Virus record (IMG/VR): IMGVR_UViG_3300029828_000006
Span: 1-64,000 of that record
Length of the DNA stretch: 64,000 nt
Reading direction: 5' to 3' (one strand)
Origin: a virus
Taxonomy: Duplodnaviria; Heunggongvirae; Uroviricota; Caudoviricetes
The translations under genes were made by a program, and so were the position numbers. Below, in pieces: positions 6,593 through 61,464 of this stretch. Under the pieces are notes generated by a model. The model had not been told where the DNA came from. It did not search any database and saw only the letters and a program-made list of their open reading frames with translations. Numbering within the stretch: position 1 is the first letter of the stretch; each line of letters begins with the position of its first letter.

Positions 6593-6608
6593 TGTGTTAG
6601 AAATTTAA
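6593..6608 (+). promoter_or_regulatory. conserved 16-bp motif TGTGTTAGAAATTTAA (candidate operator)
   Basis: Family consensus T(A/G)TGTTAGAAA(A/T)(C/T)TAA; at cre 3' end upstream of 6192..6536. Confidence 0.4.
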
Positions 6609-6609
6609 T

Positions 6610-7638
6610 TTACGAATCCATCAGGCGGCTATTAGCCCCCACAGACACGCCGCCACGGCGAAGATACCGCATAAGTGTTTCCGGTTTCTTCCAGGTTCCT
6701 TCCTGCATGATCTCCACCATAGACACCTGCTTTTCAGCCATATCAATAGCGGCCCCGACGCGTGCACTATGCCCGGTCCACGTCCGGTATCTTCCTTTGT
6801 TTGGCGTAGCATCTCTTTTATTCAGCAACACCCAGGCGTCGCTGAATATTTTCTCCATTGCAGGTGCAGTAAGGGGCGTTATCGTGATCCTGGCCTTATT
6901 GCTACGGTGTATCGGCGGGAACAGCACTGCGTCAGGATGTTCGCGAAGCCCGGAAACATCCAGCCAGTCATTCAGCACAGCGGTAGTGCGACGGGAAAGC
7001 ACCTTATCAAGCCCGGCGGCGGTCGTTATTGTCTTCGTGTGTGAAATATGTAGCGTGACAGTGTCACCTGTTTGGTCCAGATCTCCTACACGAATACGCG
7101 AGATTTCCGACATACGCATCAGCGTATTGTATGCAACAAAGAGAAAAGCCCGGTTGCGCAGGTCCACCAGCCGTTCTGACCTGGACAACAGGACGTCGAG
7201 CAGTTTCAGATCGTCCCACCGCAGCGGTATAGCCTGGCCTGTTCGTTCGCCTTTTTCCGTTGCCGCTTCACGCCGGATGCGCCGCATAGCCAGAGAAACA
7301 CTTTTATCATCCGAAAGTGGCGGAAGGCCACAATGCGAAAGCAGCATGTTAAGCATGGCGTAGTGCTTATCAATGGTGGTCGAAGCCAGATCAGCATCAT
7401 GCAGCTGAAGAAAATACTCGCGGGCCATCTCTGGTGAGATCGGGAACCAGGCGAGCTGGCGAGCGTGACACCATCTCGCCCAGGAGTGAAACACTAACCG
7501 GAGATCGCGCAAAGTATTCGGCGCATAAGCCCCCTGGTCATTCATGAACCGCATAAAGTTTTCTGCGGCCTCCTGGTACTCTTTGCCAATGTTGCGCAGA
7601 AAACCACCGGAGCTGCCAGAGATAATTAATTCACTCAT
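6610..7638 (-). CDS. cre: Cre-like tyrosine site-specific recombinase
   Basis: 342 aa; aligns with Cre along its length (RRIRRE, AYNTLMRMSEISRIRVGD, TGHSARVGAAIDMA, EIMQEGTW...Y); diverged from P1 Cre. Confidence 0.85.
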   Translation of the reverse strand: MSELIISGSSGGFLRNIGKEYQEAAENFMRFMNDQGAYAPNTLRDLRLVFHSWARWCHARQLAWFPISPEMAREYFLQLHDADLASTTIDKHYAMLNMLLSHCGLPPLSDDKSVSLAMRRIRREAATEKGERTGQAIPLRWDDLKLLDVLLSRSERLVDLRNRAFLFVAYNTLMRMSEISRIRVGDLDQTGDTVTLHISHTKTITTAAGLDKVLSRRTTAVLNDWLDVSGLREHPDAVLFPPIHRSNKARITITPLTAPAMEKIFSDAWVLLNKRDATPNKGRYRTWTGHSARVGAAIDMAEKQVSMVEIMQEGTWKKPETLMRYLRRGGVSVGANSRLMDS

Positions 7639-7789
7639 GAAACTATTTCACCTCTATATACAGATGACGCTACGCGAAAAATATAAAAATGACAGGGTAG
7701 CTATAAGTTAATTTTCAAAATACAACCCTTTGATTCGATGCACGTATTTTCAGTGATGTCAACACTGTTCATCTACACATGATTATAGC

Positions 7790-7823
7790 CTAACTTTAAA
7801 TAATGCCAATTATTTAAAGTTAT
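7790..7823. other. lox-like site (13-bp inverted arms, 8-bp spacer)
   Basis: CTAACTTTAAATA-ATGCCAAT-TATTTAAAGTTAT; arms share ATAACTT with loxP; 150 bp upstream of cre start. Confidence 0.6.
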
Positions 7824-8002
7824 AAAATGCCGATTTTTTTTAATCCATCATAGATTGATGATGACCAGTAACACGTTGCCTTCATGGTCTTTAATTTGCG
7901 AAGTGTGGTTTCTACGGTTGGTTTTCTAAAATTGATGACAAAAAATCACAGTTCGATCCTTTACTCACTCTGTTATTCGACATAAATTTGTCATAGTAAT
8001 TT

Positions 8003-8018
8003 TATGTTAGAAAACTAA
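8003..8018 (+). promoter_or_regulatory. conserved motif TATGTTAGAAAACTAA
   Basis: 14 nt upstream of the c1-position ORF start. Confidence 0.45.
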
Positions 8019-8032
8019 ATCGAGTAGGAATA

Positions 8033-9070
8033 ATGAGTAAGAAGTCGATCGAGAAAGAGTACAAACGGTTCCTGCAAACCGCTGAACGGTGGAAAGAGCT
8101 GGTGGTCGCAAACTCTGTTTTCCATGATACCAGTTATGCTGGCGAGGAATTCCGCCATGTTGCATTAACGCATGACCAAAACATATTAGAAGAAGCTGAA
8201 AAATGTCTTGCTGAATGGAAAGCCTTCGTTGACATGTGCCGCGATGCCGACGGCAAAGCGTCGAACATTGTTGAGTCTGTATATTCTCCGATCCCATTCA
8301 TCATTGAGGACACCAATCAAAGCACGCATGTCGTTGTGCAAAGCGCTACAACAACACGTACATTTACACGTGAACAATTGCTAAAAAAATACGACAAAAT
8401 CATAAAGAAAAGCCTTAAAAATAGGGTTTTTTCTCAAATCGTAGGTGATCTTGAAGAAGAACAGCGCTTCTTTGAAGCTGAGCCTGAAGGCGAGATCTAC
8501 CGGGCGCGTAAAGAGGCATATACAGATGTTGTGCTGACAACAAACATCGAAGGCAGCAATGCCCTTTCTCGCTTTAGAGTTGGCGCACATGGTGCATTGG
8601 TTTTCGCAAGACTACCGAAGACAACGATCCCCGTTGTCAATAATGTTGGTGAACGCCGGAGCATTACAATTTATTCTGGCGTCGAATCGGTACCTTGCAG
8701 CCTTCTCGGCGATTTTAACTTATATCGTGTTCGTGACCTGGAAAAACACCAGCCAAGCTATGTTGCGAAGTCGTACATCTTAAGGAACATCGATATTCGC
8801 AATGAAAGCCTTAAGCAGAAATCCGCTAAGATGCTGGAGGATGCCGATCCGGCTATTCGCCATATCATTGAGCGTAAGATACGTACATCACGTGAAGCAA
8901 TGGCAAGGCTGGATAAAATGGATCTGGAATTGTTAGACGTAATGATGGCCTCTGGAGACGACCTGACCGGCATTAAACTGAATGAAGCTCGTAAAAAATA
9001 CGGCAAAGCAATCGAAGAACGTTACGGATACACATTCCCCCAAACGCAGTACGCCGCGAAGCTCTGGTAA
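8033..9070 (+). CDS. hypothetical protein (345 aa) at the c1 position; candidate immunity repressor
   Basis: Convergent with pacB between pacB and lox as c1 is in P1; operator-like motif 14 nt upstream; function positional only. Confidence 0.35.
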   Translation: MSKKSIEKEYKRFLQTAERWKELVVANSVFHDTSYAGEEFRHVALTHDQNILEEAEKCLAEWKAFVDMCRDADGKASNIVESVYSPIPFIIEDTNQSTHVVVQSATTTRTFTREQLLKKYDKIIKKSLKNRVFSQIVGDLEEEQRFFEAEPEGEIYRARKEAYTDVVLTTNIEGSNALSRFRVGAHGALVFARLPKTTIPVVNNVGERRSITIYSGVESVPCSLLGDFNLYRVRDLEKHQPSYVAKSYILRNIDIRNESLKQKSAKMLEDADPAIRHIIERKIRTSREAMARLDKMDLELLDVMMASGDDLTGIKLNEARKKYGKAIEERYGYTFPQTQYAAKLW

Positions 9071-9077
9071 TCACAAC

Positions 9078-9103
9078 CGGCCCCGCATCGCGGGGCTTTA
9101 TAT
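9078..9103. terminator. rho-independent terminator
   Basis: GCCCCGC-ATC-GCGGGGC stem plus T-run between convergent genes. Confidence 0.6.
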
Positions 9104-10606
9104 ATCCAGATCCGGCATTTCGATATCCGCCAGAACCTGATCTCGGAAAGTTGCCATTTCGGCACCAATATCTTCATTAGCAGGCACATAGTCCACCAGC
9201 ATAGTGAAGCAGTAGGTATCCCATCGGTCAGGCGATTTGATGTTTAGCTTTTGCCGCATGTGCTCTTTGCGCATCATCGCCATTTTCCCTTCTTCATTCA
9301 GTAAAAAGGGGATTTTTGACGCTTGCTCTGCCGTTTTAGGGTCACTGTCTATCCGCATACGCCCTGACTTTATGGCATCACGCGCCATAATGTTTGCGTA
9401 GGCACGCTGATTAACAAATCGCTCCCTGTCTTTGTTCGCAAACATGGGTTTTCCCCACCGAATACGTACCGGGTTCGCACCACGACGCACCAACTGCGCA
9501 CACGTATCAGAACCAAAACCATCAGCATCAACCGCGATTGTTATATTCGGGTATTTTTCCGGCGTACATTCGTTATATATGAAGTCAGCAAAGGCCAATG
9601 GGTCCATAGTGCCAGGCATCTCCATTACCTTAAAGTTAACAACGCGCCGCTTATCCCTGTGACCTGATACCTTGCAGATGTTGAGGACCGACTTATCTCG
9701 CCCATTACCAACGTCAGCCGTTGCCACCCATCCCCAGTTTTTCTCCAACAACACCTTGCGGCGAGCAGCGCGATCGCATTCATCACGACCAAGCAAATAG
9801 CCGTTAATTTCTCGTGGGAACTGACCAAGCACCTTGACCATGTACTCAATAGAATCGCGCCCGCCATATTCCAGAAGCTTCTCCTTGATGAATTGTGGTG
9901 TGACGAACGGTGATTCTTCCGAGTTAAGAACAATTGCTGTCCAGATCCCTTTCGGGTTGTCTGGGGTTTTTGCTCGAGAATGGTGCGAATCGTAGAAATA
10001 ACCACTTGGCCTTGTTGGCTGGGATAGCATCAACATCCGGTTATCTTCTTCAGTAAGAGCACCGGTCATTACGCCGATCGCCTTATCAGATATACCAGAT
10101 GCTTCATCCAGAATTAGAAGCAAATGTGCCGCGTGTTCCCCCGCCAGCGCTTCTTCGTTGCCGAGTCGATAACCTTTGCAGAGAACTTCCCAAATCCCCT
10201 TACGGGAGCGCTCATAAAACATGGTGTCAGAGAGGACAAAATAGGTCTGCAACCACCCATGACGCTTAACTGCATTCGCCCAATACTGTTTAACGTATTT
10301 GAATACGCCTGTTTTTACCTGGCCTATCTTGTTAGCAACAATGATGACACGGGCATCGGGGAACAGGATCATAAAAATCAACAGCAACATCGCGGTAAGG
10401 GACGACTTCCCCGTTCCGTGTCCGGACGTGACGGTCGTCCTACTCCCCGTTTCCTGCACTGACTGAATGATCTGCTGCTGCTGGTGGGAGGGGAACATCC
10501 CAAAAATATCGACTACAGCCTGGGTAAAGTTGTAGCGGTATTTGATTACCATATCGCGCCAGCGTGGATCGCTGGTGACGCATTTAATCTTGCGCCCGCC
10601 AGCCAT
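9098..10606 (-). CDS. pacB: PacB, terminase large subunit
   Basis: 502 aa with Walker A-like TSGHGTGKS and LILDEA; start overlaps pacA stop. Confidence 0.8.
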   Translation of the reverse strand: MAGGRKIKCVTSDPRWRDMVIKYRYNFTQAVVDIFGMFPSHQQQQIIQSVQETGSRTTVTSGHGTGKSSLTAMLLLIFMILFPDARVIIVANKIGQVKTGVFKYVKQYWANAVKRHGWLQTYFVLSDTMFYERSRKGIWEVLCKGYRLGNEEALAGEHAAHLLLILDEASGISDKAIGVMTGALTEEDNRMLMLSQPTRPSGYFYDSHHSRAKTPDNPKGIWTAIVLNSEESPFVTPQFIKEKLLEYGGRDSIEYMVKVLGQFPREINGYLLGRDECDRAARRKVLLEKNWGWVATADVGNGRDKSVLNICKVSGHRDKRRVVNFKVMEMPGTMDPLAFADFIYNECTPEKYPNITIAVDADGFGSDTCAQLVRRGANPVRIRWGKPMFANKDRERFVNQRAYANIMARDAIKSGRMRIDSDPKTAEQASKIPFLLNEEGKMAMMRKEHMRQKLNIKSPDRWDTYCFTMLVDYVPANEDIGAEMATFRDQVLADIEMPDLDI

Positions 10607-11970
10607 TAATCATCCTCCGGCGGTTCTATCGCGATATCATCATCTCCGGCGTCATACCCTGCATCAGATGCATCATAATCACCGTAAATTTCAGCCGTTG
10701 CCGAAGGGTCAATATCCAGCTCTTCGTCGTTGGCCTCGAATTCTCCAGCTTTACGCTCGCCATTGCGGTCGTAATCTCCGCACCCCAATTCTTCAACAAT
10801 GGTTGCCACATCCGCCCGGCGCTCTGCCAGCCATTGCGGATGGTTAGCCTGAAGCGTTGCAAACTCCCTTGCCTCTTTGTCCAGCTGTTCATCATCAACA
10901 TCATTGACGTCAGAAACAGGTGGTTCGAGAAGAGTGATAGCTTTCGCCGCGCGCGCCGCGAGGATAGCCGGGACGCTGACACCCTGGCGCTCGATGTATT
11001 CAGCAACACCGATATCATCCAGTTCCTCGCGCTCACGCATACGTATAGCGGCGGCGATAACTCTGGCTGCGCGTGCGTCAGCGCCAATGCGATATTCAAT
11101 CTCTTTGCCACGCTGTTCGGCCTGTAGGCGTGCTAATTCGAGTTTTTCTCTGGCCTCAGCCTCTTTGAATGCTTGCTGGCGAGCGCTCTGACGAAGCTTT
11201 TCATCCCCCTGTCGCAGCTTTTGTTCGGACTGATATATAGCTGCCAACCTACTGATAAAATCATTCATGTAGTAGGCCGCGTCACTGATTAGACCGAGAA
11301 GGCGCTGCCCAGGGTGCATTCCTTCTGGCTCTTTATCGCCCAAGGCGTCTATTTCCGCCTGTAGACGTTCGGCCTCCTGATCAACAATGCTTTGATACTG
11401 AAGTGCGCGCTCTTGCGCCATTTGAATTGCTAACCGCAGGTGTTCTTCTGCGCCGTTCTTCATCATATCGCGAGCCACATTCGTAGTTGGCAATGTGGCA
11501 CGCTGCACAGCACCGTCAGGGATCATTGCAGAAGATCCCTCAATTTTTGGGGCGTTTTTATCTTCTTCGGGGATCATTTTCGCCATTTTTTCGCGCAATG
11601 ATCTCCTGACGGATTCTTTTATCTCATTGTTATTATTTGAATTATTTTCATGATCCGAAGTTTTCTTTCTCGGCATACTTCGGAAAGAACCTGCGCCCTG
11701 CGAATTGTCAATTTCTGTAAATTTTGTTTTTTCTGCACCCTCTTCCAGCTTTTTTGTTGCTCTTCCCGCCCGTTTTTTTTCAGGTGATTTGGTGCTTTTT
11801 TTTGTTGTCTTTACCTGCGACCGCACCTCATTTTTTTTCATATTGAGATGCTTTCTGGCTGTATTGAAGCTAAGGCCATGCTCCTCACAGTATTCCTTTA
11901 CAGTGATCCCTTTTTCTTCACGCAACGCTATAAAGCGGGCGCGGTGCTCCTCCCAATTAACCAGACTCAT
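10606..11970 (-). CDS. pacA: PacA, terminase small subunit / pac recognition
   Basis: 454 aa, N-terminal HTH-like, acidic C-terminus; contains GATC cluster. Confidence 0.75.
   Translation of the reverse strand: MSLVNWEEHRARFIALREEKGITVKEYCEEHGLSFNTARKHLNMKKNEVRSQVKTTKKSTKSPEKKRAGRATKKLEEGAEKTKFTEIDNSQGAGSFRSMPRKKTSDHENNSNNNNEIKESVRRSLREKMAKMIPEEDKNAPKIEGSSAMIPDGAVQRATLPTTNVARDMMKNGAEEHLRLAIQMAQERALQYQSIVDQEAERLQAEIDALGDKEPEGMHPGQRLLGLISDAAYYMNDFISRLAAIYQSEQKLRQGDEKLRQSARQQAFKEAEAREKLELARLQAEQRGKEIEYRIGADARAARVIAAAIRMREREELDDIGVAEYIERQGVSVPAILAARAAKAITLLEPPVSDVNDVDDEQLDKEAREFATLQANHPQWLAERRADVATIVEELGCGDYDRNGERKAGEFEANDEELDIDPSATAEIYGDYDASDAGYDAGDDDIAIEPPEDD
11510..11656. other. candidate pac site (cluster of TGATCN/GATC elements)
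   Basis: Five GATC within 147 bp inside pacA 5' part, in two groups, resembling P1 pac hexamer organisation. Confidence 0.35.
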
Positions 11971-12359: not shown

Positions 12360-12435
12360 TAATCCCCCGGGCAGGAAATGACCGAGGGGATGATAATGAG
12401 AATGTTAAAACTGTATAGACTGGTAAAAAGATGAT

Positions 12436-12451
12436 TGTATTAGAAAATTAA
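12436..12451 (+). promoter_or_regulatory. motif variant TGTATTAGAAAATTAA
   Basis: In the lpa upstream region; weaker consensus match. Confidence 0.3.
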
Positions 12452-12467
12452 TACTAAATATCTAATG

Positions 12468-12860
12468 CTACCAGCGAGACAAACGAACAACATGTTTCAC
12501 TTTTGCGATCCACTGTCCGCGATAACTATTGATTACGGCCTGTGCCAGCTTCAAATTGGCTTCAAAATCAGCCTTACTACCATCAGACTCCACCAGCATT
12601 CCTCCATCTATTTCTGGTAAACATAGATAATCCTGCTCAACCTGCAGCGGCATTGATGGCTCTCTGAATGGGGTTACTTGCTCTGCTTTCCAGCGAAATC
12701 TAACCCTTATCCCCCTGGTGGTCATTACTAGATAGCCTGTTATAGTGCTTTTATGGCCCACATCAGTACGCGTGGCATTGCATGACACGATCTTACAGTT
12801 AGCGATAGACCACTCCATATTGGTGGCCTGTTGAGTGCTTAATTTGGTAGTCCCGTACAT
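12468..12860 (-). CDS. hypothetical protein (130 aa)
   Basis: Coupled to upstream gene; no domain recognised. Confidence 0.45.
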   Translation of the reverse strand: MYGTTKLSTQQATNMEWSIANCKIVSCNATRTDVGHKSTITGYLVMTTRGIRVRFRWKAEQVTPFREPSMPLQVEQDYLCLPEIDGGMLVESDGSKADFEANLKLAQAVINSYRGQWIAKVKHVVRLSRW

Positions 12861-13435
12861 CAGAAAGCCTCCCAGTCAGTCGCGATAATATCCACACCAG
12901 TTGCAAACCAGTCTGTCTGCGCCTGTAAATCACCATTCATCATTACCAGGCGAGGCATCACCATCACATCGCACCCTTCCACAATATCGAATGCCTCTTC
13001 CGGCAAGAATTCGAAGAGCTTTTCTTTGCTGCCAATGCTGCCACGGAACATCGATATATAGCTCCCTTTAGGCCATGATGTCCGCCGGGCATCAAGCCCT
13101 TTCATCATCCAGTAAAAAGCCGAGGAAAAAGGGATATTCTTTTTGCCAATGATTACATTATTCGCTTCTGTGTACTTCAGGAACTTAACTAACCTTACCA
13201 TTGACTCGGATAACGCAACGTATGGCTCATGATTGATTGCTGACACGCTTACACCGTGCAATCCAACGCTTACCACTGTCATATCGCCGCTCTGTGCGGT
13301 TTCGATATTGACGCCTTTGCGAACTAATGAGGCGTAAAGTTCCTCTCGCTTTTGGGTCCAGCGTTCCCGCTTCCCTATGAAGTCACTCAAAATGAGATCT
13401 TCTTCTGCATATGCGTTATCGTTCGCCATTAACAT
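12860..13435 (-). CDS. protein with C-terminal DUF2829-like domain (191 aa)
   Basis: AFYWMMKGLDARRTSW ... DIIATDWEAF matches DUF2829 pattern. Confidence 0.4.
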   Translation of the reverse strand: MLMANDNAYAEEDLILSDFIGKRERWTQKREELYASLVRKGVNIETAQSGDMTVVSVGLHGVSVSAINHEPYVALSESMVRLVKFLKYTEANNVIIGKKNIPFSSAFYWMMKGLDARRTSWPKGSYISMFRGSIGSKEKLFEFLPEEAFDIVEGCDVMVMPRLVMMNGDLQAQTDWFATGVDIIATDWEAF

Positions 13436-13657
13436 AACGTCTCCTTTTTACACGCGCGACCATCTCTCGGTTAAACCGATAGAGATGTCGAAACTTCGTA
13501 TTAATTAAGGGTTACAGCCTGAGCGGCTATATGATGAATTGAAAGGAGTTGTGGCGGTGGTGCCTCCACCTGCCAGGTCAGCCACGCCCGGCGACGACAC
13601 TTATCAGAACCTCAATGAATGAAAATGGCTTCGTCACGAGCGCATAGCCGCAATTAC

Positions 13658-13889: not shown

Positions 13890-13965
13890 TGGTGGCCCCT
13901 ACCGGACTTGAACCGGTGACCGTGCGATTATGAGTCGCCAGCTCTAACCACTGAGCTAAGGGGCC
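13890..13965 (-). tRNA. tRNA-Ile2 (anticodon CAU, lysidine type)
   Basis: 76 nt with CCA; near-identical to recalled E. coli ileX; anticodon loop CTCATAA. Confidence 0.9.
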
Positions 13966-13974
13966 AATTAGTTT

Positions 13975-14950: not shown

Positions 14951-15037
14951 TGGCGGAGAGTAATGGAATCGAACCATCATCGCTTGCGCAATGGGACGGT
15001 TTTCAAGACCGTTTGAGCACCATGCTCCCTACTCTCC
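14951..15037 (-). tRNA. tRNA-Ser (anticodon UGA)
   Basis: 87 nt type II tRNA; acceptor GGAGAGT/ACTCTCC, anticodon loop CTTGAAA, long variable arm, CCA. Confidence 0.8.
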
Positions 15038-15654: not shown

Positions 15655-15730
15655 TGGTGCCGGTTAACGGACTCGAACCGCTGACATCCTGCTTACAAGG
15701 CAGGCGCTCTACCAACTGAGCTAAACCGGC
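15655..15730 (-). tRNA. tRNA-Thr (anticodon UGU)
   Basis: 76 nt; acceptor GCCGGTT/AACCGGC, anticodon loop CTTGTAA, CCA. Confidence 0.9.
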
Positions 15731-15734
15731 AATT

Positions 15735-15821
15735 TGGTGGGGAGTGATGGAGTCGAACCACCCGAGTCGCAATGACAGTAGATTTACAGTCTACCCCGCT
15801 ACCCCTACGGACTAACTCCCC
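15735..15821 (-). tRNA. tRNA-Tyr (anticodon GUA)
   Basis: 87 nt type II; anticodon arm AGACTGTAAATCT as in E. coli tRNA-Tyr; CCA. Confidence 0.85.
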
Positions 15822-15826
15822 TGAAT

Positions 15827-15903
15827 TGGCGATGGTGGGTGGATTCGAACCACCGACCGACAGCTTAGAAGGCTGCTGCTCTATCCTACTGAGCTACACC
15901 ACC
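15827..15903 (-). tRNA. tRNA-Arg (anticodon UCU)
   Basis: 77 nt; anticodon loop CTTCTAA; CCA. Confidence 0.85.
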
Positions 15904-16094
15904 ACTGTGCCGGGTACGTCTCCGGCGAGGGCTTCCACCTCCGTATGCTTTTCGGCGCACCGCGCCCTGGCTGCAATTCAGTAACAGGGGATGCATAACC
16001 CTGGCTTCCAGCGTGATTAGCGCCTTCAGCATGACGGGATATACCCGTAACCAACAAACTTTCCCATATACCATCAAGCAATGGCTGTTACGCG

Positions 16095-16190
16095 GGAGGG
16101 ACGTAACAGGTAAGGGCGCTGACCAGAAAGACCTGACCCTTCTCATTCATCTGGTTAATCACACCAGCGCCCTTGCCTGTTATGCCTCCC
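16095..16190 (+). repeat. long hairpin (17-bp stem, GGGAGG/CCTCCC extension)
   Basis: AACAGGTAAGGGCGCTG ... CAGCGCCCTTGCCTGTT; shares ACAGGTAAGGG start with minus-strand units. Confidence 0.5.
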
Positions 16191-16408
16191 CGTTCCCTAA
16201 TACACAGACGGGGACACTCTGCGGTCGATTTTTTGACGGGGGACGACTCATACCCCGTGGCGTCAGGCTTCTTAGGCCGCTACCATCATCAGATCATCGT
16301 TTGCATTTACTTTAATGGTCGGGTTCTAAACCGCCGCAAAGTCGCTAACCATGACGAAAACCCTAAAAAAGCCCACCCGAAGATGGGCAAATACGCTACA
16401 TCTCACAC

Positions 16409-16485
16409 AAGAAAGAAGCCGACTGCCTGAGCTGGATTCACTTTCAAATGCCCGCTGAAAGGGATCACAAGTCGGCTTCTTTCTT
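16409..16485. repeat. perfect 16-bp stem hairpin with 45-nt loop
   Basis: AAGAAAGAAGCCGACT ... AGTCGGCTTCTTTCTT. Confidence 0.5.
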
Positions 16486-16702
16486 GATGCGGCACTCTCT
16501 CCGCCCGTCACCGCTCTGTCTCGGTTGTCGCGTTTGCCACGCCAGCCATAACGAGGTTTAAAGTCTTTTCACGTTCCCATCACTCGACTGCCGTCTGTGG
16601 CTGTTCGTTGCAGCGGGGGTGCCTCCCCCTGGGGATATCCCCGGCCTTACCCCATTCTTTCAAGACACAATGCAAGGCCACATCCGCATAGGTGCATTAC
16701 CG

Positions 16703-16767
16703 CAACATTAAGGAGACTCAGGGCAAAAGGTAACCGCCACAAAAATCCCTATGCCTCCTTAATGTTG
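16703..16767. repeat. perfect 13-bp stem hairpin with 39-nt loop
   Basis: CAACATTAAGGAG ... CTCCTTAATGTTG with leader-like GCATTACCGCAA before it. Confidence 0.5.
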
Positions 16768-16966
16768 AAGATGTGCATTGATGATTAGATGCAGCATGTA
16801 CCGTTACTCTCTGCCGGACCATCATCAATGAACACCTTAAAAAGACCTTCCGTGGCTCAACATGTATTGTCGTTTACTCCGCAAAGTGCTCTCTCTGAAA
16901 CCACTTTCCGCACTAAACCTGTTGAACTTTGGTCTGCTCGGTGCCAAAGCGTGCTCTTGGTTTACT

Positions 16967-16982
16967 ATACTTTTCTAACACT
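16967..16982 (-). promoter_or_regulatory. motif variant (rc GTGTTAGAAAAGTATA)
   Basis: In non-coding region; partial match. Confidence 0.25.
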
Positions 16983-16994
16983 TTAATTTGTTAA

Positions 16995-17070
16995 TTGCTG
17001 GTGGGCAAACAATAACCAATAAGTGACTATCAAGCCCAGCAAGCGAAACGTGGGTACCGCCCACCAGCAA
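16995..17070. repeat. perfect 12-bp stem hairpin with 52-nt loop
   Basis: TTGCTGGTGGGC ... GCCCACCAGCAA. Confidence 0.45.
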
Positions 17071-17122
17071 GGAAAATTCTATGTTAAGTCATCTTCACAA
17101 TCAATACATTCGAATTGTGATT

Positions 17123-17138
17123 TTAGATTTCTAACACA
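17123..17138 (-). promoter_or_regulatory. conserved motif (rc TGTGTTAGAAATCTAA)
   Basis: Immediately beyond the 3' end of 17139..18362. Confidence 0.4.
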
Positions 17139-18362
17139 TTATTTCCCATAAAGATCTTCTACACCCCCATTCTTCTTATCCCATTCGTTCGCCCATACCC
17201 GGCAAGCGTCAATGATTTCCTGACGACGATCTCCTTGCATGAACGGAATGCTTTCATGGAAACAGCTTGGAATGCAGGCCACACTGAATACAGTATCAAA
17301 CTCCGTCTGCTTGATTGCCTCCAGCGTCTCCGGACGCATTTTTAATTCATCGATTGGCGCATCCTTAGAGTCCATAATCCGGCGATATAAGCGCGGAAAA
17401 TCCGTCTCCAGGTACGCCATAATTTTATCTGCGAGACATTCGTCTATGTCGGTATTCCAGTCCTTTTCGAAGCCCGGCAGGCGATAGTAAAGCGGCGTTC
17501 CCCATACCGATGGGATCACATCCATCGTTAACAGGCGATTAGTTCTGATTTGTTGATGGTAATTAGCCGTCAGCAGTGCTTCGCCACGCTGCCCAGTTTC
17601 CGCAACCAGGCCGTGCGGATACTCATGGATGTAGGCAATGGCATCCCTTCCATCATACATAAGTGGAAATGTCTCTGGTCTTTGTCCCATGCCACAAGCA
17701 CGGTTCAGATCGTGACCAAGCTGTGAGCACTCTCGCTTTAATGTTTCGATAATGCTCTGCGCTGTAGCCAACTTTTTACGCAGTGTGACGCCTTCGCCTT
17801 GATAATCAATGCATTGCTGATTGAGCTTGGTTAAACGCTCTTTTAGTTCCCGGCGCTCTCTTTTCAGCGTGCGGTTATCCTTCTCCGCAACATCCAGCCG
17901 CTTTGTCAGGCTGGGCGGATAGTCTTTTTTGTAACGGTTCAAATCGGCTTCGGCAGATTTACGCAGTGTATTTGCCTGTTCAAGACGCGCTTCCAGATTG
18001 CCGATCTCATTACGCATATTCGCGGCAAATTGATTAACTGCATCGCCCAGGCTTTCAACTGTCGCTGATACGCCTGTGACTTGTGAAAAACGGATCAAGC
18101 CATCATTAACGGCTTGTTGGTATTCCTCAAACTGATCCACCAGCTTATTGTAATCAACTGCCCCATCATCAAGCAGCTTGTTGATTTCCGCCACCAGGTT
18201 ATCTGTAGTGGCAATGACACTCTCGTGCAGTCGCTTTGACAGGTCATCTCCCGGATTCCGTTTCTGTATAAGAGCGATTTGTGTGCGCAGCGTTTCAATT
18301 GCTGTCGAGATAATTTCCAGATTAGAAGTATCAGTGTGTTGACTCATTGCTGTTCCCGTCAC
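17139..18362 (-). CDS. hypothetical coiled-coil protein (407 aa)
   Basis: ATG with GGGA RBS; N-terminal 200 aa heptad-rich, C-terminal globular domain unrecognised; motif at both ends. Confidence 0.55.
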   Translation of the reverse strand: MTGTAMSQHTDTSNLEIISTAIETLRTQIALIQKRNPGDDLSKRLHESVIATTDNLVAEINKLLDDGAVDYNKLVDQFEEYQQAVNDGLIRFSQVTGVSATVESLGDAVNQFAANMRNEIGNLEARLEQANTLRKSAEADLNRYKKDYPPSLTKRLDVAEKDNRTLKRERRELKERLTKLNQQCIDYQGEGVTLRKKLATAQSIIETLKRECSQLGHDLNRACGMGQRPETFPLMYDGRDAIAYIHEYPHGLVAETGQRGEALLTANYHQQIRTNRLLTMDVIPSVWGTPLYYRLPGFEKDWNTDIDECLADKIMAYLETDFPRLYRRIMDSKDAPIDELKMRPETLEAIKQTEFDTVFSVACIPSCFHESIPFMQGDRRQEIIDACRVWANEWDKKNGGVEDLYGK

Positions 18363-18372
18363 TTTGTTAAAT

Positions 18373-18388
18373 TAGTTTTCTAACATAT
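18373..18388 (-). promoter_or_regulatory. conserved motif (rc TATGTTAGAAAACTAA)
   Basis: 26 nt upstream of the 17139..18362 start codon. Confidence 0.45.
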
Positions 18389-18426: not shown

Positions 18427-18456
18427 CAAAAAACCCGCTAATTGGCGGGTTTTTAT
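18427..18456. terminator. bidirectional rho-independent terminator
   Basis: AAACCCGC-loop-GCGGGTTT flanked by A-run and T-run. Confidence 0.65.
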
Positions 18457-18971: not shown

Positions 18972-19466
18972 TTAATCAAGACAAACATACTCCGTGATAG
19001 CTTTTATGGCTTCAGCGGCACTGCGCGCCTCAAAGCAGTAGTAACCGGCTTCAGTGAGGCGGGTCATCCAGACGAGTTGTTCGGGAGTCAGGCGATTTCT
19101 CCCATGTTTCATCTCAATGCGCATTCCGTGGTATCCCCCACAAGCAAGGTCTATAGAAAGATCGGGATATCCCTTCTTTTGGCCCTCTGCCACCATTTTT
19201 ATTGCCGTCCTTATGCCTCGCAGGCCACCGTTTGGAGTGGCGTGAGTATGCTCATACACATAACGCATATTGCGATACAACCAGTCCAGGACGCGAACCT
19301 GCTCGTAATGCTCATGGTTCCTTTTGATTAGATCTGGGTTTTTCTCCAGTTCTCTAAGAGCTGCGGCATGTGGGGATGTTTCAGAATATTCACTGCGACG
19401 CCTTCTCTTTCGCGCTATTTTTCTAACACACCCATTGATGGTAAATATGCGAAATAATAACAACAA
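18972..19466 (-). CDS. VRR-NUC domain nuclease (true start probably internal)
   Basis: KGYPDLSIDLACGGYHGMRIEMK matches PD-(D/E)xK VRR-NUC core; conserved motif lies inside the first 20 codons. Confidence 0.5.
   Translation of the reverse strand: MLLLFRIFTINGCVRKIARKRRRRSEYSETSPHAAALRELEKNPDLIKRNHEHYEQVRVLDWLYRNMRYVYEHTHATPNGGLRGIRTAIKMVAEGQKKGYPDLSIDLACGGYHGMRIEMKHGRNRLTPEQLVWMTRLTEAGYYCFEARSAAEAIKAITEYVCLD
19415..19430 (-). promoter_or_regulatory. conserved motif (rc TGTGTTAGAAAAATA)
   Basis: Inside the annotated N-terminus of the VRR-NUC ORF, implying a later true start. Confidence 0.35.
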
Positions 19467-19602
19467 CGTTAGATTTGTAAAACAAGAGAGATACTACTCA
19501 AGGATGGTCTATATGCAACAGGTCGGATTTGCTTTTAGAGTAAAGAGTGACCTTAATCAACAAGGAGGGTAAATCGCATGGCATTTACCCAACCTGTTAT
19601 TT

Positions 19603-27173: not shown

Positions 27174-27324
27174 AGGATTTCCCCCTCTAAACCGTAAAAA
27201 ATTCCGCTATGCGGTACGGTTGAGAGGGTATGGAGAATGTTATTTTCAGGGGGACGATACTACCGTCAAAATCACATACTCCCCATAGTTTGCCTACTTA
27301 TTAACCCATGACCGGGAGAAAAAT

Positions 27325-28974: not shown

Positions 28975-29316
28975 TACGGCCTCACTAACAGGTTTAACAA
29001 CCTGCTACCCGCTGTCAAACAGGTGGCAGGACGTGACAGGGTTGACAGACTGGCGTTAGTGAAACCAGCAGGCCGAAGCCTCCCCATCACGCCCCACCAT
29101 AATTCGGGCGTAACGCGGTTTACGGACACAAAAATACCGCAATATCGGAAATCTGCGGTTGTCCGCACTAACATTCAGGCTGTCAAACCTGGTCGCAGAA
29201 TTTGCTACGACGGCATGAATATAAGCCTGAAAACATGGAAGATCAACTAAAAATTTCAGCAATGGATGACTTCAGTCGATGATGCAGATCATACATTCCG
29301 ATTTAGAAACAGCAAA
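28975..29316 (-). promoter_or_regulatory. structured leader with complementary 8-10 nt elements (candidate antisense-RNA control region)
   Basis: GCTGTCAAAC at 29011 and 29179 and its complement GTTGACAG at 29041, downstream of operator-like motif. Confidence 0.25.
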
Positions 29317-29332
29317 TTAATTTTCTAACACA
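29317..29332 (-). promoter_or_regulatory. conserved motif (rc TGTGTTAGAAAATTAA)
   Basis: Head of the leader preceding the small-ORF/Rha-like operon. Confidence 0.45.
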
Positions 29333-30410: not shown

Positions 30411-30441
30411 AAAAGCCGCTTCTCAGCGGCTTTTGCTTTTT
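30411..30441. terminator. bidirectional rho-independent terminator
   Basis: AAAGCCGCT-TCTC-AGCGGCTTT with T-run. Confidence 0.6.
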
Positions 30442-30518
30442 TGGCAGTCGCTACCGGAGCAGTGACCGCGATCCTACTCGATCCCATCCACCAGGATCAA
30501 CAGTGTATATAAATACAC

Positions 30519-30534
30519 TATGTTAGAAATTTAA
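30519..30534 (+). promoter_or_regulatory. conserved motif TATGTTAGAAATTTAA next to AGTGTAT-N4-ATACACT palindrome
   Basis: About 170 bp upstream of RepL-like gene start. Confidence 0.45.
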
Positions 30535-33242: not shown

Positions 33243-33306
33243 GAATCACCGCAAATTGTTTCCAGTTTTGCGGCAGCATAATCAGTATGTGATTTCAGCG
33301 GTTGGT

Positions 33307-34704: not shown

Positions 34705-34759
34705 CTATAGAGAAAGCTGTGAGTGTAAAAAGTGTGTGATTTATGTGAGAACAGATAAG

Positions 34760-38461: not shown

Positions 38462-38566
38462 ACCCCTCCAGAAATAACATCTAATGCGCCACTAACTTAG
38501 TCAGTTTGTTATTTCCTTACAGGACATCTTCTAAAATCTCCCCCCTTAACATACTAGGGGGGACAT

Positions 38567-45321: not shown

Positions 45322-45386
45322 ACGAACATAGCCCCTTCATAAGCAATGAACCAAAGGAGAGTATGCTCAGTTTGTGATTTCCGTTG

Positions 45387-52697: not shown

Positions 52698-52839
52698 TTA
52701 TTCCTCCGAAAAGCAGGTATCTGTTCATTTTCCAGAGGATAGGGAGTGTGTGATTTGCGATGGGGATTGAATGAAGATCTTTGCTGGTCGAGAAGCGATT
52801 ATTGAGGGTGATTTTTACACCTTAAGTGACGCTACTCAC

Positions 52840-54930: not shown

Positions 54931-54945
54931 TCTGCGCCTCCAGCG

Positions 54946-55497: not shown

Positions 55498-55551
55498 TGT
55501 TGCCTACAACTCAATAACAAGGATGTTCCCGCCACAAGGGCGGGATAGGGA

Positions 55552-56043: not shown

Positions 56044-56051
56044 AAATACTC

Positions 56052-56642: not shown

Positions 56643-56691
56643 ACGCTATTTCTCCCAGGTAGAGGCCACCTTTGCAGGCGGCCTATGTCAC

Positions 56692-57432
56692 TTACAAACC
56701 GCGTTTTTTGCGAATGCGCATTGATTTTTTGCGGTTGATATTCGCTACGGATGTATGTGCTTTGCGGCGTGCTTTTTTCAGCGCCTGTTTTTGCAATGAC
56801 GTCATGCGGCGAGGACGCGGGCGTTTACGGATGATGGTAACCTTGCCATCACGAACCACTTTTTTACGTACCGCTTCCAGCATTGCGCTATCACCACCAG
56901 CAACGGTGTAAATGGCAATAGCTGTTTCCATCATGTCGGTGTCGCTTTCGGAAAGAGCGTCATAAACACGTTCGGCAGCTGAGTCATCTTCATCGTCGAT
57001 CATTTCGGTTACATCGTCCTGATCAGCGCCAAGCGCAACAGCTGCATCAGCAAGAGCTGCGAGAGCATCGTTATAAGCATCGATTTGCTCATCGGTGAAA
57101 TCGGTGTCTTCATCGATATCAGCCAGGCCAGCCATAGTGATTGCTAATGCATCAAATGAGTCAGCCTCCGGATCACCATCTTCAACCCAACCAGCAAGCA
57201 TGGAAGCTGCCAGGCTGCGCATATCACCTTGTGCACGGGATTCAACCGCTTCCATCATCGCGGTTTCAATGTCGTCTTTGGGCTTTGGTTGAGTGTCCTT
57301 TCCTTTCTGTCCTGCGCTTTCCAGCATGGCGTTATCATTATTGTCCTGCGTGGATTTATCACCGCTTTCAAAGCAGCCAGAACCGAAAATCGCACGCATA
57401 AAAGGATCAGCAGTATAATTTTTCATATTCAA
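56692..57432 (-). CDS. acidic protein with strongly basic C-terminal tail (246 aa)
   Basis: Asp/Glu-rich body and RKRPRPRR...RKKRGL end. Confidence 0.4.
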   Translation of the reverse strand: MNMKNYTADPFMRAIFGSGCFESGDKSTQDNNDNAMLESAGQKGKDTQPKPKDDIETAMMEAVESRAQGDMRSLAASMLAGWVEDGDPEADSFDALAITMAGLADIDEDTDFTDEQIDAYNDALAALADAAVALGADQDDVTEMIDDEDDSAAERVYDALSESDTDMMETAIAIYTVAGGDSAMLEAVRKKVVRDGKVTIIRKRPRPRRMTSLQKQALKKARRKAHTSVANINRKKSMRIRKKRGL

Positions 57433-57469
57433 ACCTCTCTCCCCCGCATCATTTAGCGGGGGTTATAAA

Positions 57470-59128
57470 TCAGCGCATCAGAATTGGCTTACCGACGATT
57501 CGGCGAGCTGTACCGGTCGGACAAACAGACCAGGACACTTCCCACAGATCGATGTCCTTTTGGACAACCTGAACAACATATGGATCTTCACCCTGGGACT
57601 TGTCACGTGGAGTAACCAGCGCACCGGCTGCAACGTAACGGTCAAGCAATTCAGTCATTGCTTTCATTAGCGTTTCTTTGGTAATGCCATCCGGTTCGTG
57701 CTTAATCGCCTGAGCTACTTCATAGAAATCTCTGGCGATGGCGTTCATCAAGGAAGACACATGCTGGAATCGCAGATAGTTGTTTTTGCTGTAAGTTGTT
57801 AAAGAGTCGTCAATGTAAACGGACCCGTCAGCAGCAACTGAAACTGGATTAATGCGCGCAAGAACGAACGCTTCACGATCAACTGCACCGATATTTGGAA
57901 TTCGGGCAATGTTCTGTCGATCAATAATCGCGCGTGATATACCTGCCGGTGCGTAATGCCAACCACCAACATCCGGTACCAGCGCCACTCCTTTTGCTTT
58001 CGCTACGAATGCGTCGCAGCTAATGCCATAGACGACATTCATTCCAGTGAAAGTATCTCGGCAGGAGAGCGGGAAGTAGTAACGGCTTGGTTGATGTGAG
58101 CCGCCAAAACTATGGCTTTTCGCTTCTGAAATAGCGTTTTCAGGTGTCTGGTTGCCCTTCAGGTCATAGAACATGTCTACGCGAACATCTTCAGCCAGCT
58201 TTTTGATTGCGGCTAAGGCGGATGCGTCATAACAACCCAGTGACAGCAATGCGGTGTAATTAACCTCTGAAGCTTCGAGAACCTTTAATGCTTCCAGATA
58301 GTCTTCAGTGTCAATTTCGGACAGATCTCCATCAGTACCACCTTCAAAAGCCACATCCTCAAAAATGAGTTGAGCAGCGGATGCTTCTGCATTATCTGCC
58401 AGTACGGCACCAATGCGAGTGGACTGGCTTTCAAGCAGTGTCGGAATCCATGCTGGTTGGCCCATGTCGTTAGTGCCTTCTGGATTGAAAGACACTTGGT
58501 GGCTTTCCAGCACCTCAATGGACCCATCGGTTTGTTTTTCTTTCAGCGTCAGCGTAAAGAGTTCGCTTTCTTCATCATCGCGAGTTAGTGATAACGTGCG
58601 ATTTTGAGATGCATCACCATCTTTGATGAAGAATAATGCCTTCTCTTCACCTTTAATCTGGGGCGTCTCTTTGGGTGTGAAGGACACTGATTGAGTCGTT
58701 GCAGTTGAAGCAACACCAACGCTTAATGTGTCACCTGGATTTACTGTGGTTTCAGTAGGTTCAACGGAAAGTTCTTTGCTCGCCTTTGCCGCTTTTGCTT
58801 TGCCCACAACGGAAACAGAAATACCCGGCACCTTCATGTCTTTAGCGCAAACTCGAACGACATATCCAGAGCCGCCTTTTACTGCACGCTCCACGTGGCG
58901 ATATGGTTCAAATGCCGCGCCCTGGCGAGGGTGAATCGGTGAACCTAATACGCTTTGATAAGTCGTATCGTCAACTTTCAGTACCTTACCCGGTGCGCCA
59001 CGACGCGATATTACAAGCCCAGCAAAGACGGATGCGCCACCGCTGGTATTGGTGAGGGTAGCGTCAGCATTTACTGACATTACAGCAACGCCAGCTGCCT
59101 GCCCTACCGAAAAACTAATCTTATTCAT
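57470..59128 (-). CDS. tail sheath protein
   Basis: 552 aa; C-terminal GGWHYAPAGISRAIID...RINPV matches the contractile-sheath signature as in T4 gp18. Confidence 0.7.
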   Translation of the reverse strand: MNKISFSVGQAAGVAVMSVNADATLTNTSGGASVFAGLVISRRGAPGKVLKVDDTTYQSVLGSPIHPRQGAAFEPYRHVERAVKGGSGYVVRVCAKDMKVPGISVSVVGKAKAAKASKELSVEPTETTVNPGDTLSVGVASTATTQSVSFTPKETPQIKGEEKALFFIKDGDASQNRTLSLTRDDEESELFTLTLKEKQTDGSIEVLESHQVSFNPEGTNDMGQPAWIPTLLESQSTRIGAVLADNAEASAAQLIFEDVAFEGGTDGDLSEIDTEDYLEALKVLEASEVNYTALLSLGCYDASALAAIKKLAEDVRVDMFYDLKGNQTPENAISEAKSHSFGGSHQPSRYYFPLSCRDTFTGMNVVYGISCDAFVAKAKGVALVPDVGGWHYAPAGISRAIIDRQNIARIPNIGAVDREAFVLARINPVSVAADGSVYIDDSLTTYSKNNYLRFQHVSSLMNAIARDFYEVAQAIKHEPDGITKETLMKAMTELLDRYVAAGALVTPRDKSQGEDPYVVQVVQKDIDLWEVSWSVCPTGTARRIVGKPILMR

Positions 59129-59195
59129 GCTGGTTCTTATCCTCTAAAGCGAGAGAACGAGGCAAGGCTACCCACGGTTAATGGGCAGCCTCTGA

Positions 59196-59474
59196 TCAGG
59201 ATTCGCTTACCGTGAAGTTGTCGCCTACGGTTACTTCTTTCGTAGTTGGTTCAACACTGACGGCGCTTACGCTTTTAGGTGCCTCCCTAACAGTGACTGT
59301 GCACTGTGCGGTTTTATTGCCGTCATTTGTTTTGATTGTCAGCACTGCCTGCCCGGCCTTAAGAGCGGTACATGTAGTGCCATCAACCTGGACAATTTCA
59401 GGGTGATCTGACTCAACAGTGAAAGATTTGTCTGTTGCGTCAGATGGCGTGATAGTTACTTGAATGTTTGCCAT
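59196..59474 (-). CDS. Ig-like (Big_2) domain protein (92 aa)
   Basis: Beta-rich TVTV...LTIKT...CTVTV pattern; AGGAGA RBS. Confidence 0.45.
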   Translation of the reverse strand: MANIQVTITPSDATDKSFTVESDHPEIVQVDGTTCTALKAGQAVLTIKTNDGNKTAQCTVTVREAPKSVSAVSVEPTTKEVTVGDNFTVSES

Positions 59475-59621
59475 TCTTTTCTCCTGAACGCCCCTTATTC
59501 AGGGGCGTGTTTTTGCCTTACTTCTGCTTTGTTTTTTTCTGTGCCTTTGAAGTGTTCGCGGCGATAGTTTCACCTTCATCTACGTCAAGTGACGTTGGTG
59601 ATACCGACACGTTCGCCACCA

Positions 59622-61319
59622 TCACTTTTTTTCGTTAACCTTGCCTGTCAGCATGTCGATAGCACCTTCTTTGGCACGAGTCAGACGCAGGCGGGTGAAG
59701 TAGTTTTCACCGTTGCGAGGATGTACTTCGTTGATGGCACTGCCCCAGAGAGTGGTACGGTTAACGAGAGACGGATTGGTTTCGTGCACGTAAGGGATTG
59801 CTGGGACTGCATCACCAGCAATCAGACCGGCTTTACCGATGCCTTCGCCACGCCCATAGAAGAAGATGTCATCCAGCCCGAAGTCATATCCCTGTGCCTG
59901 GAATTGCTCACAGACAGGTTGCGGCACTTCGTAAATACGAATCGTGCCAAACAGGGTGCCGATGTACTGTACATACGGCGACTGAACGTAACCTGGTGCG
60001 ATCTGGAAGTGCTGTGGAGGCAGAGAGCGCAGGAAGTTCGCGGCGTCACCACCAGCAAAGCCGCCACGAATACCCGTTGTCAGGGTACGATTTGCCATTT
60101 CTTGAGACAGAGCGTTTACTACGTGACGCAGGAGGCCGACCCAGGACTCATAGTTTTGAGCTTCCGGCAGAGCCACATCAAATTCACGACCATAAACGGT
60201 ATGGAATACTAGGGTGCGCAGACGCATGATGTCAGTCTCATGGGAGATCCAGTTACGCATCGCGGAGAACTGAAGTGCCGCTAATTCAAGGCCGTGCTCA
60301 CGGCTTAAATCGGATGCGGACATTACCGTGTGTTCGGATGCAATTACGTACTGGGACGGACGAACTTCGTACTTACGCATAGCCTGGTTGATCACCGGAA
60401 TCAGGCTTGGATTGCGCTCGATGTTAATTTCGACCTGAACAGCAATTTCAGTACCTTCTGGCGGAGCCTGGGTAAATGTAATGTCAATGACACCAGTGTC
60501 ATAGGCAACTTTGGCAGTCGCTGAGAAAGCATTACCTTTGCTGTCTTTAGCATTGAAATAAAGGTTGCCATCGCCGTCGTCAACTTTGGACGGTTTGCGG
60601 TTGATCAGCAGTTTGTTATAACCAGCGCGAAGCGGGCAGGATTGTCCCTCAAAATTTTGGATGTCGAACTGGAAGGTTTTGGTGCTGCCATCCCCTTTAG
60701 TGGAAAGGGTATACAGGCGCTTCATTTGAGAATAAACACCAGCTGACTGCATATTCAGTTCGTCACCTTGTTTGAAGGTGCCGAATTTTGTGCCTGCTAC
60801 GTTGACCAGTTCATAAATATTTGACTCGTCACGATCACAAGGAACAAAAGTACAGGCATCACTGGTAGCAGCGCCCAGAGAGGCAGGCAGAATTAGAGCA
60901 GCATATTGAGCAACTTTCATTACGCCGTCAGAGCTACGCATTGATTGCGCGACAGACTCAAACATCGCCTTACCCGTGCCTTCATGGGTATCACTGGCAC
61001 ATTCAGTCATCAGGCGTTCAAGAGCCATGTGTGCGTTCGCCAGGATGTCACTTGCCGGGTAATGACCATGTTGACGTTTATACTCATGCAGAGACATAGC
61101 CCACCCACCAGTGATCTGACGAGCGACCTCTGGATTTACGCCTTCAAACATAGGCACTTTCTGGATTGCTTTATCCAGGTTTTCCATCATTACTGCCTGG
61201 TCAGCAATCATGTTGCCTGCTGCATCGGTGGTCGGATCGACGGTCATAGCCATGACGCTTGCCGCCCGATTCATAATCTCGCGCTCGCGATCACGAGCTG
61301 GCTGAATGTTTTTATTCAC
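59622..61319 (-). CDS. putative major head protein (565 aa)
   Basis: GTG start; size matches P1 major head precursor; upstream of sheath. Confidence 0.35.
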   Translation of the reverse strand: MNKNIQPARDREREIMNRAASVMAMTVDPTTDAAGNMIADQAVMMENLDKAIQKVPMFEGVNPEVARQITGGWAMSLHEYKRQHGHYPASDILANAHMALERLMTECASDTHEGTGKAMFESVAQSMRSSDGVMKVAQYAALILPASLGAATSDACTFVPCDRDESNIYELVNVAGTKFGTFKQGDELNMQSAGVYSQMKRLYTLSTKGDGSTKTFQFDIQNFEGQSCPLRAGYNKLLINRKPSKVDDGDGNLYFNAKDSKGNAFSATAKVAYDTGVIDITFTQAPPEGTEIAVQVEINIERNPSLIPVINQAMRKYEVRPSQYVIASEHTVMSASDLSREHGLELAALQFSAMRNWISHETDIMRLRTLVFHTVYGREFDVALPEAQNYESWVGLLRHVVNALSQEMANRTLTTGIRGGFAGGDAANFLRSLPPQHFQIAPGYVQSPYVQYIGTLFGTIRIYEVPQPVCEQFQAQGYDFGLDDIFFYGRGEGIGKAGLIAGDAVPAIPYVHETNPSLVNRTTLWGSAINEVHPRNGENYFTRLRLTRAKEGAIDMLTGKVNEKK

Positions 61320-61448
61320 GGTTAAGCCCTAAATTCGGGCGCGGCGTGAAGGTTCTTTTGACGGGCTAACAATACCTACTTTGTGATTTAGTCAATAGGT
61401 TTAGTAAAATAAAATATATTAACACGCATGTTGTTATGTGATTTAATT

Positions 61449-61464
61449 TTAGTTTTCTAACACA
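61449..61464 (-). promoter_or_regulatory. conserved motif (rc TGTGTTAGAAAACTAA)
   Basis: Between divergent major-head candidate (start 61319) and 61478 gene. Confidence 0.45.

Follow-up and report, generated by a model that had tools for sequence, protein, structure and literature searches.

A dispersed intergenic motif in a D6-like plasmid prophage is probably the operator of its C1-family repressor

The window analysed here is a 64,000-nucleotide stretch of the virus record IMGVR_UViG_3300029828_000006, in which a 16-bp motif, T(A/G)TGTTAGAAA(A/T)(C/T)TAA, recurs between genes as a candidate operator of the phage's C1-family master repressor. By megablast the window is 98.6% identical to Escherichia phage D6 (MF356679), and a window coordinate corresponds to roughly the D6 coordinate plus 7806. 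The window phage is thus a close relative of D6, itself a P1-related plasmid prophage and a distant cousin of P1. Gene names are taken from the GenBank annotations of D6 and P1 (AF234172 for the latter). No operators or promoters are annotated in either of the two D6 GenBank records, and we found no description of D6 operators in GenBank or in the searchable full-text literature, whose coverage does not extend to the D6 genome (2018) and immC-region (2004) papers.

The gene for the candidate repressor is as follows:

8033..9070, plus strand: c1, predicted motif-binding repressor of 345 amino acids, equivalent to D6 orf1, 'prophage repressor, similar to P1 C1'

Over 268 amino acids, its product shares 21% identity with P1 C1 (E = 1e-8), and both proteins match phrog_1678 over their full length. 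The match to the NCBIfam model phage_rep_C1 is weak (25.9 against an equivalog cut-off of 500 bits), which makes the window protein a distant family member rather than an equivalog. At 345 amino acids it is 62 longer than P1 C1 (283 amino acids). The window protein matched no Pfam family, and no relative of solved structure was found. The gene order dre-rox-c1-pacB-pacA-lpa agrees with that of P1, with c1 next to pacAB and a Cre/lox-type module in both phages. The rox–c1 interval holds no annotated gene.

To count the motif, we used 100 dinucleotide-preserving shuffles of the window as background for exact matches. The window contains seven exact matches, at 6593(+), 8003(+), 17123(-), 18372(-), 29317(-), 30519(+) and 61449(-), against none in the shuffles. 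Allowing up to two mismatches raises the count to 10 against 0.25 expected, adding 12436(+), 19415(-) and 19469(-). A weight matrix built from the sites separated nine strong sites (scores 25–36) from a background of at most 10, with 16967(-) next in line at 18.4. The tally is therefore nine strong and two to three weak sites in the window, and about 16–20 in the whole of D6. Motif discovery succeeded only on intergenic DNA, because Chi sites dominated the word counts of whole sequences. Of the 16 sites with up to two mismatches in the D6 record, 15 are non-coding, in a genome of which 10.5% is non-coding (binomial P = 3e-14). All window sites lie outside annotated genes save 19415, which falls inside the annotated VRR-NUC/pmgM open reading frame (ORF), within its first 52 nt. 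An exact 14-mer scan of IMG/VR viral contigs returned mostly single matches of the chance type. The motif is real, non-random and intergenic, and occurs in both orientations. An earlier reading of the sequence without database searches had proposed 11 intergenic sites in both orientations; the recurrence, placement and orientations hold, and the frequency lies well above background, but a count of 11 requires the weak 16967 (three mismatches) and 19469 (two mismatches).

The sites and their surroundings, with P1 counterparts where there is one, are as follows:

6593..6608, plus strand: candidate operator directly after the dre stop; exact match; heads the leftward orf117-orf116-dut-isaA operon
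7918..7933, minus strand: weak, possibly auxiliary site between rox and c1; three mismatches (D6 112–127)
8003..8018, plus strand: candidate operator; exact match; 14 nt before the c1 ATG; P1 counterpart Oc1
12436..12469, both strands: candidate bivalent operator upstream of lpa-pacA-pacB; 12436–12451(+) with one mismatch plus a degenerate inverted partner, 12454–12469(-)
16967..16982, minus strand: weak site in the leader of the tRNA-tci operon; matrix score 18.4, three mismatches
17123..17138, minus strand: candidate operator adjoining the pmgS stop; exact match; heads the leftward tRNA(Arg,Tyr,Thr,Ser)-tciAB-tRNA(Met)-orf6-orf5 operon
18372..18387, minus strand: candidate operator between an intrinsic terminator (18429–18454) and pmgS; exact match; P1 counterpart OpmgRa/b
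19415..19430, minus strand: candidate operator heading pmgM(VRR-NUC)-orf11-pmgR; two mismatches, matrix score 25.4; P1 counterpart O26 or Oppp
19469..19484, minus strand: doubtful site; two mismatches that break the GTTAG core; missed by the matrix scan
29317..29332, minus strand: candidate operator heading the c4 RNA-icd-antirepressor operon; exact match; P1 counterpart Oc4
30519..30534, plus strand: candidate operator 172 bp upstream of repL; exact match; P1 counterpart OrepL
61449..61464, minus strand: candidate operator 13 nt before the orf52 ATG (61478, plus strand); exact match; about 60 bp upstream of the gene 23 late promoter

P1 carries 22 dispersed operators with an asymmetric consensus (PMC8546580). 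The C1 operators annotated in AF234172 are Oref, Omat, Ossb, Oc4, OrepL, Orlf, Odmt, Obanab, O26, Oppp, OpmgRa/b, OpmgT, Olpa and Oc1a-e. Comparing the two maps position by position, we found that the window sites head the counterparts of the P1 C1 regulon: c1, lpa, repL, c4-icd-ant, pmgS, pmgM-pmgR, tRNA-tci and the operon that follows the recombinase gene. Outside the window, D6 has further sites before hrdC-dmt (a clear inverted pair; Odmt in P1), before ref (Oref), near mat and before pdcB. This association of sites with genes has outlasted rearrangements between the D6 and P1 genomes. The gene neighbourhoods given by the sequence-only reading agree with the D6 annotation, and the resemblance it saw to the dispersed, asymmetric C1 operators of P1 is borne out by the match in position and by the mixed orientation.

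The site before c1 is probably autoregulatory, and P1 has Oc1a-e in the equivalent place. The site after dre is comparable to P1 Oref, which follows cre-c8, and the bivalent site is the counterpart of Olpa, likewise before lpa; its inverted partner has five mismatches and stands 2 bp from the first half. For 17123..17138 the P1 counterpart is Oban, of the tRNA-tci-ban operon, or OpmgT. Downstream of 29317, Rfam models identified an a1b1 target (29172–29224, minus strand; 54.4 bits) and a C4 antisense RNA (29019–29104, minus strand; 68.8 bits) that precede icd and the antirepressor gene, in the order and with a spacing similar to that of P1 Oc4-a1/b1-c4-icd-ant. The c4-icd-antirepressor locus is a P1-type immI module, although its antirepressor is of the Roi/Rha type according to the D6 annotation and not Ant1/2. 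Three GATC sites (30470–30500) lie between the 30519 operator and the repL start, as in the PkilA/OrepL region of P1. A strong GC-rich hairpin with a T run on both strands (30411–30434) may serve to terminate the prt-pro late operon or to attenuate repL.

We then asked whether relatives of D6 keep these sites. A tblastn search detected c1 in 149 plasmid records, which fall into identity bands of at least 99%, about 89%, 80%, 68–70% and about 30%. Four relatives represent the bands with 68–89% identical C1: S. dysenteriae L007, E. coli L009 and L011, and S. Typhi L010. All four keep the motif at orthologous positions, often as an inverted pair with a 2-bp gap. Over 16 orthologous comparisons with L007 and L009 (C1 70% and 80% identical), sites were 87% identical and their 30-bp flanks 67–68%, a figure that was anchored on motif matches in the relatives and is thus biased towards sites. 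In alignments of the dre-c1 and lpa upstream regions, the motif stands out as a conserved island. Before c1, 15–16 of the 16 bases are kept while the upstream flank diverges, and the core of the weak site at 7918..7933, TTTTCTAA, is invariant across five genomes within an otherwise unalignable stretch. Both halves of the lpa operator are kept as inverted GTTAG and CTAAC cores. The site after dre is kept in place in L007, L009, L010 and L011, that of pmgM in L007, L009 and L011, and that of repL in L007. An orthologue of the weak 16967 site was found in L007, L009 and L011, and the 17123 site is bivalent in L009. The right arm of rox runs directly into AAAGTTAGAAA, which resembles the operator core, in four relatives (alignment columns 150–190); the window carries AAAGTTATAAAA at this junction (7791–7826).

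A late-promoter element had been offered as the alternative reading of the motif, which in a P1-like phage would mean one that depends on Lpa. The annotated late promoters of P1 read AAGTGACTT-N4-TAnnnT, where AAGTGACTT is the -22 box. This pattern was not enriched in the window (17 matches against 16.4 expected), so the late promoters of the window must differ from those of P1; moreover, the sites at 18372 and 61449 precede genes annotated as morphogenetic or lie near a capsid gene, and both points favour the late-promoter reading. However, reading the regions upstream of late operons led us to recognize a second motif, AAATCACAnAnT-N3-TAnnnT, which we then searched as a pattern. It has nine matches in the window against 1.7 expected, every one of them co-directional with the downstream gene:

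33275–33295, minus strand: late box before prt
34722–34742, minus strand: late box before ddrB
38494–38514, minus strand: late box before lydA
45360–45380, minus strand: late box before R
52736–52756, minus strand: late box before pmgB
61369–61389, minus strand: late box before gene 23
27225–27245, minus strand: late box before darB
27269–27289, plus strand: late box before the divergent hydrolase gene
17103–17123, minus strand: late box next to operator 17123

Wherever gene order is comparable, these positions match P1 LPpro, LPdar, LPs, LPsit, LP23 and LPlyz. The window box reads AAATCACA and that of P1 AAGTGACTT, and both consist of a directional box plus a -10 element before late operons. 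The Lpa homologue of the window (Pfam BPP1_LPA) is 31% identical to P1 Lpa, which fits a box related to, yet distinct from, that of P1. The second motif, which is not annotated in the D6 records, is probably the Lpa-dependent late promoter of the D6 type. In the window, lpa-pacAB apparently forms one operator-controlled operon without a separate late promoter before pacA, unlike in P1.

Tried as a late promoter itself, the TGTTAGAAA motif had the wrong orientation and location: it occurs in both orientations and in inverted pairs, and a matrix scan revealed no site in the 31–61 kb block of structural (late) genes, whereas AAATCACA is oriented and placed as expected in nine of nine cases. Between leftward gene pairs, the motif points one way at 6593, 12436 and 30519 and the opposite way at 17123, 18372 and 29317. 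Its presence in both orientations between co-directional genes argues that it is not a directional promoter element. Among the genes it precedes are c1, lpa, repL and c4, early genes that C1 represses in P1. With a separate co-directional motif occupying the late promoters, we reject the late-promoter reading, whose likelihood we take to be close to nil.

The motif could instead be part of early sigma-70 promoters, as a shared -10 or -35 hexamer or a UP-like element. It is AT-rich, its last bases give TAAnnT on the forward strand and TAACAT on the reverse, and weak sigma-70-like matches overlap several sites. At pmgS, a conserved ACTAATAAAA directly upstream of the 18372 site contains a -10-like TAAAAT whose end coincides with the operator's first base, the operator itself standing just after the intrinsic terminator. 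At repL, TAACAT lies within the operator. The c4 operator adjoins a candidate TTTGCT-17-TATGAT promoter, and at pmgM a sigma-70-like TTTACA-16-TATTAT lies just upstream of the 19415 operator, which sits 17–32 nt past this candidate promoter. The TTTACA of this match is contained in the doubtful site 19469..19484, which is absent from L007 and L009 and probably represents the pmgM promoter's -35 region, not an operator. Against a promoter element speak the mixed orientation, the inverted pairs and a distance to the start codon that ranges from 13 nt to 172 bp. Furthermore, the GTTAGAAA core is unlike either sigma-70 hexamer, a promoter scan stayed mostly at the level of shuffles, and another sequence replaces the motif in plasmids of similar hosts with a different C1 (see below). 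We therefore consider a promoter element very unlikely.

The annotated starts of pmgS (18345–18362) and pmgM (19391–19466) look too long. The GTG of pmgS at 18362 is 9 nt from the operator, whereas relatives retain the ATGAGT at 18347, which has a GGGAA ribosome-binding site. The TTG of pmgM at 19466 places operator 19415 inside the ORF; a GTG at 19393, following GAGAAGG, is the likelier start.

To relate the motif to known operators, we compared it with the C1 operator of P1/P7, a 17-bp asymmetric consensus, ATTGCTCTAATAAATTT; the D6 motif is 16 bp long and also asymmetric. The two sequences differ, as the sequence-only reading had held, and the P1 consensus it gave is correct. The D6 motif has no copy in P1 even at up to two or three mismatches, and the P1 consensus has none in the window at up to three mismatches, compared with 17 in P1 itself. 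This mutual absence fits the 21% identity of the C1 proteins. The absence of P1 operators places the window in the same kind of system but outside the P1/P7 immunity group, and together with the low C1 identity supports the predicted immunity specificity unlike that of P1. Read on the other strand, the D6 motif is TTAGTTTTCTAACAYA, and its best matrix alignment to the P1 operator registers TCTAA. Single and paired operators occur in both D6-type phages and P1; most window sites are single, while clear inverted pairs are found before hrdC and pdcB in D6 and at several sites in relatives. P1 operators are also variably placed relative to promoters.

Further evidence came from plasmids with a more distant C1. 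In Leclercia pE1_003 (L008) and a Citrobacter portucalensis plasmid (L012), C1 is about 30% identical to that of D6, and the two are 49% identical to each other. Both plasmids lack the D6 motif. Instead, ATTCTAAGG is repeated in their intergenic DNA (four and six copies, respectively, against 0.25 expected), following the recombinase gene, where the D6 clade has its own site at 6593, and preceding c1, ref, rdgC-dam and VRR-NUC. The fuller form, (T)A(G/A)ATTCTAAGG followed by a T-rich tail, stands at D6/P1 operator positions:

L008 4068, 8084, 9477, 19211, 24324 and 26980: motif copies in the Leclercia plasmid
L012 5778, 13617, 18377, 19886, 26034, 26214 and 39799: motif copies in the Citrobacter plasmid

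TCTAA is in register across the P1 (GCTCTAAT), D6 (TTTCTAAC) and Leclercia (ATTCTAAG) sequences. Three C1 clades thus have three operator variants at equivalent places, each containing TCTAA.

Alternatively, another phage or host protein could bind the motif, such as a nucleoid protein, a further repressor or a small DNA-binding protein encoded in the early region. The link between C1 and the motif comes from comparison, which leaves room for another binder, and the covariation is not specific to C1 because many other genes also distinguish the Leclercia and Citrobacter plasmids from D6. Searching the window and the whole of D6 for Lxc (Bof), the co-repressor of P1, and Coi, its C1 inactivator, gave only noise (tblastn, E >= 0.8), although very divergent small proteins could escape such a search; Lxc was likewise undetected in a D6-like plasmid (PMC6799933). 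The immunity circuit would then be unlike that of P1, which also favours another binder. However, the controlled operons coincide with the experimentally defined C1 regulon of P1 at no fewer than eight loci, including a site before c1 itself, and the TCTAA core, the length and the asymmetry are common to the motif and the P1 C1 operator. A host factor, moreover, would keep one motif across closely related enterobacterial hosts, whereas the motif changes. A binder other than C1 therefore seems unlikely.

Taken together, these results point to the motif as the operator of the phage's C1-family master repressor, the product of 8033–9070, a reading to which we assign a probability of about 0.85. 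Several observations weigh on the other side. Similarity between the D6 and P1 operator matrices is only marginal (column-shuffle p about 0.05), and paired D6-type sites stand 2 bp apart, compared with a 6-bp overlap in P1. The 61449 site, which has one mismatch in D6, is without a P1 counterpart, and the terminator-like hairpin separates 30519 from repL. Sigma-70 promoter predictions near the sites are weak and ambiguous, also in a second, looser scan, with no more promoter-like sites than in shuffles in most regions, so that the operator–promoter geometry is one we infer. The bias in the site-conservation figure counts here as well, and with no detectable Lxc or Coi the immunity circuit is not a copy of that of P1.

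What sequence comparison shows is that the sites exist, how frequent they are, where they lie, how well they are kept and that motif type covaries with C1 clade; from this we infer that C1 is the binder, that its binding represses and which promoter belongs to each site. In the plasmid prophage, C1 would bind each asymmetric site of about 16 bp, or two inverted sites 2 bp apart at lpa. The sites would overlap, adjoin or sit just downstream of sigma-70 promoters, and bound C1 would block initiation or early elongation at early promoters, its own included, as in the P1 mechanism. The silenced set would comprise c1, lpa-pacAB, repL, c4-icd-antirepressor, pmgS, pmgM-pmgR, tRNA-tci, the dut operon after dre, and orf52-53. 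With lpa among the repressed genes, all AAATCACA late promoters would be silent in the lysogen. Upon inactivation of C1, Lpa would be made and would switch on the late operons through AAATCACA, while repL would start lytic replication.

A comparable layout is known from the repressor of mycobacteriophages L5 and L1 (Cluster A), which has many dispersed asymmetric 13-bp operator or 'stoperator' sites. As in the D6 type, one repressor is paired with many dispersed asymmetric sites genome-wide. However, the L5/L1 repressor belongs to an unrelated family with other hosts, and stoperators are orientation-biased and act mainly as intra-operon roadblocks, whereas D6-type sites stand at operon heads in both orientations.

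The operon headed by the 17123 site contains a set of tRNA genes:

13890–13965, 14951–15037 and 15655–15903, minus strand: tRNA genes Met-CAT, Ser, Thr, Tyr and Arg, co-directional with tciAB

ARAGORN placed the D6 tRNAs (L001 6084–7850) on the minus strand; the MF356679 feature table assigns them to the plus strand and lacks tRNA-Met. In place of the Asn tRNA of D6, the window carries Tyr and Arg. The interval of about 1.2 kb that separates operator 17123 from the first tRNA (15904–17122) holds only short ORFs and no annotated D6 gene, and a permissive Rfam scan of the leader (15900–17140) returned no credible RNA family. The equivalent P1 leader holds a dicF-like region, and the window stretch holds the weak site 16967. 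A P1-like late-promoter look-alike lies at 17076–17094. D6 orf6 of the same operon (12860–13435, minus strand) encodes a Tad2-like (Thoeris anti-defence 2) domain (PF11195, E = 1e-9). Chi, GCTGGTGG, is present in 33 copies, compared with a shuffle expectation of 1.7, and 24 of these copies lie on the minus strand; examples of the 33 are at 1887, 2039, 4493, 16997 and 17061.

A diverged C1 is expected to own distinct operators, so the D6 motif adds to the P1-type system, itself textbook, and no new kind of mechanism is revealed. What the D6 group gains is an operator consensus and a map of repressor-controlled operons, in plasmid prophages that are common in E. coli, Salmonella and Shigella. 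The map parts early, C1-controlled operons from late, Lpa-controlled ones, and provides a sequence-level explanation of why D6 should be heteroimmune to P1. It also offers potentially orthogonal repressor and operator parts beside the Dre/rox system. The comparison of three clades suggests a route by which immunity specificity diverges within a preserved regulon. Beyond this, we give even odds to a more general scheme, in which the C1-family repressors of P1-like phage-plasmids recognize an invariant (Y)TCTAA core with clade-specific flanks (ATTGC-TCTAA-TAAATTT in P1, TTAGTTT-TCTAA-CACA in D6 and TAGAT-TCTAA-GG in Leclercia/Citrobacter). New specificities would arise as C1 and the flanks co-evolve, with about ten operons keeping their wiring even through genome rearrangement. 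If this is true, the immunity groups of uncultured D6- and P1-like plasmids, some of which bear resistance genes, would be predictable from sequence alone.

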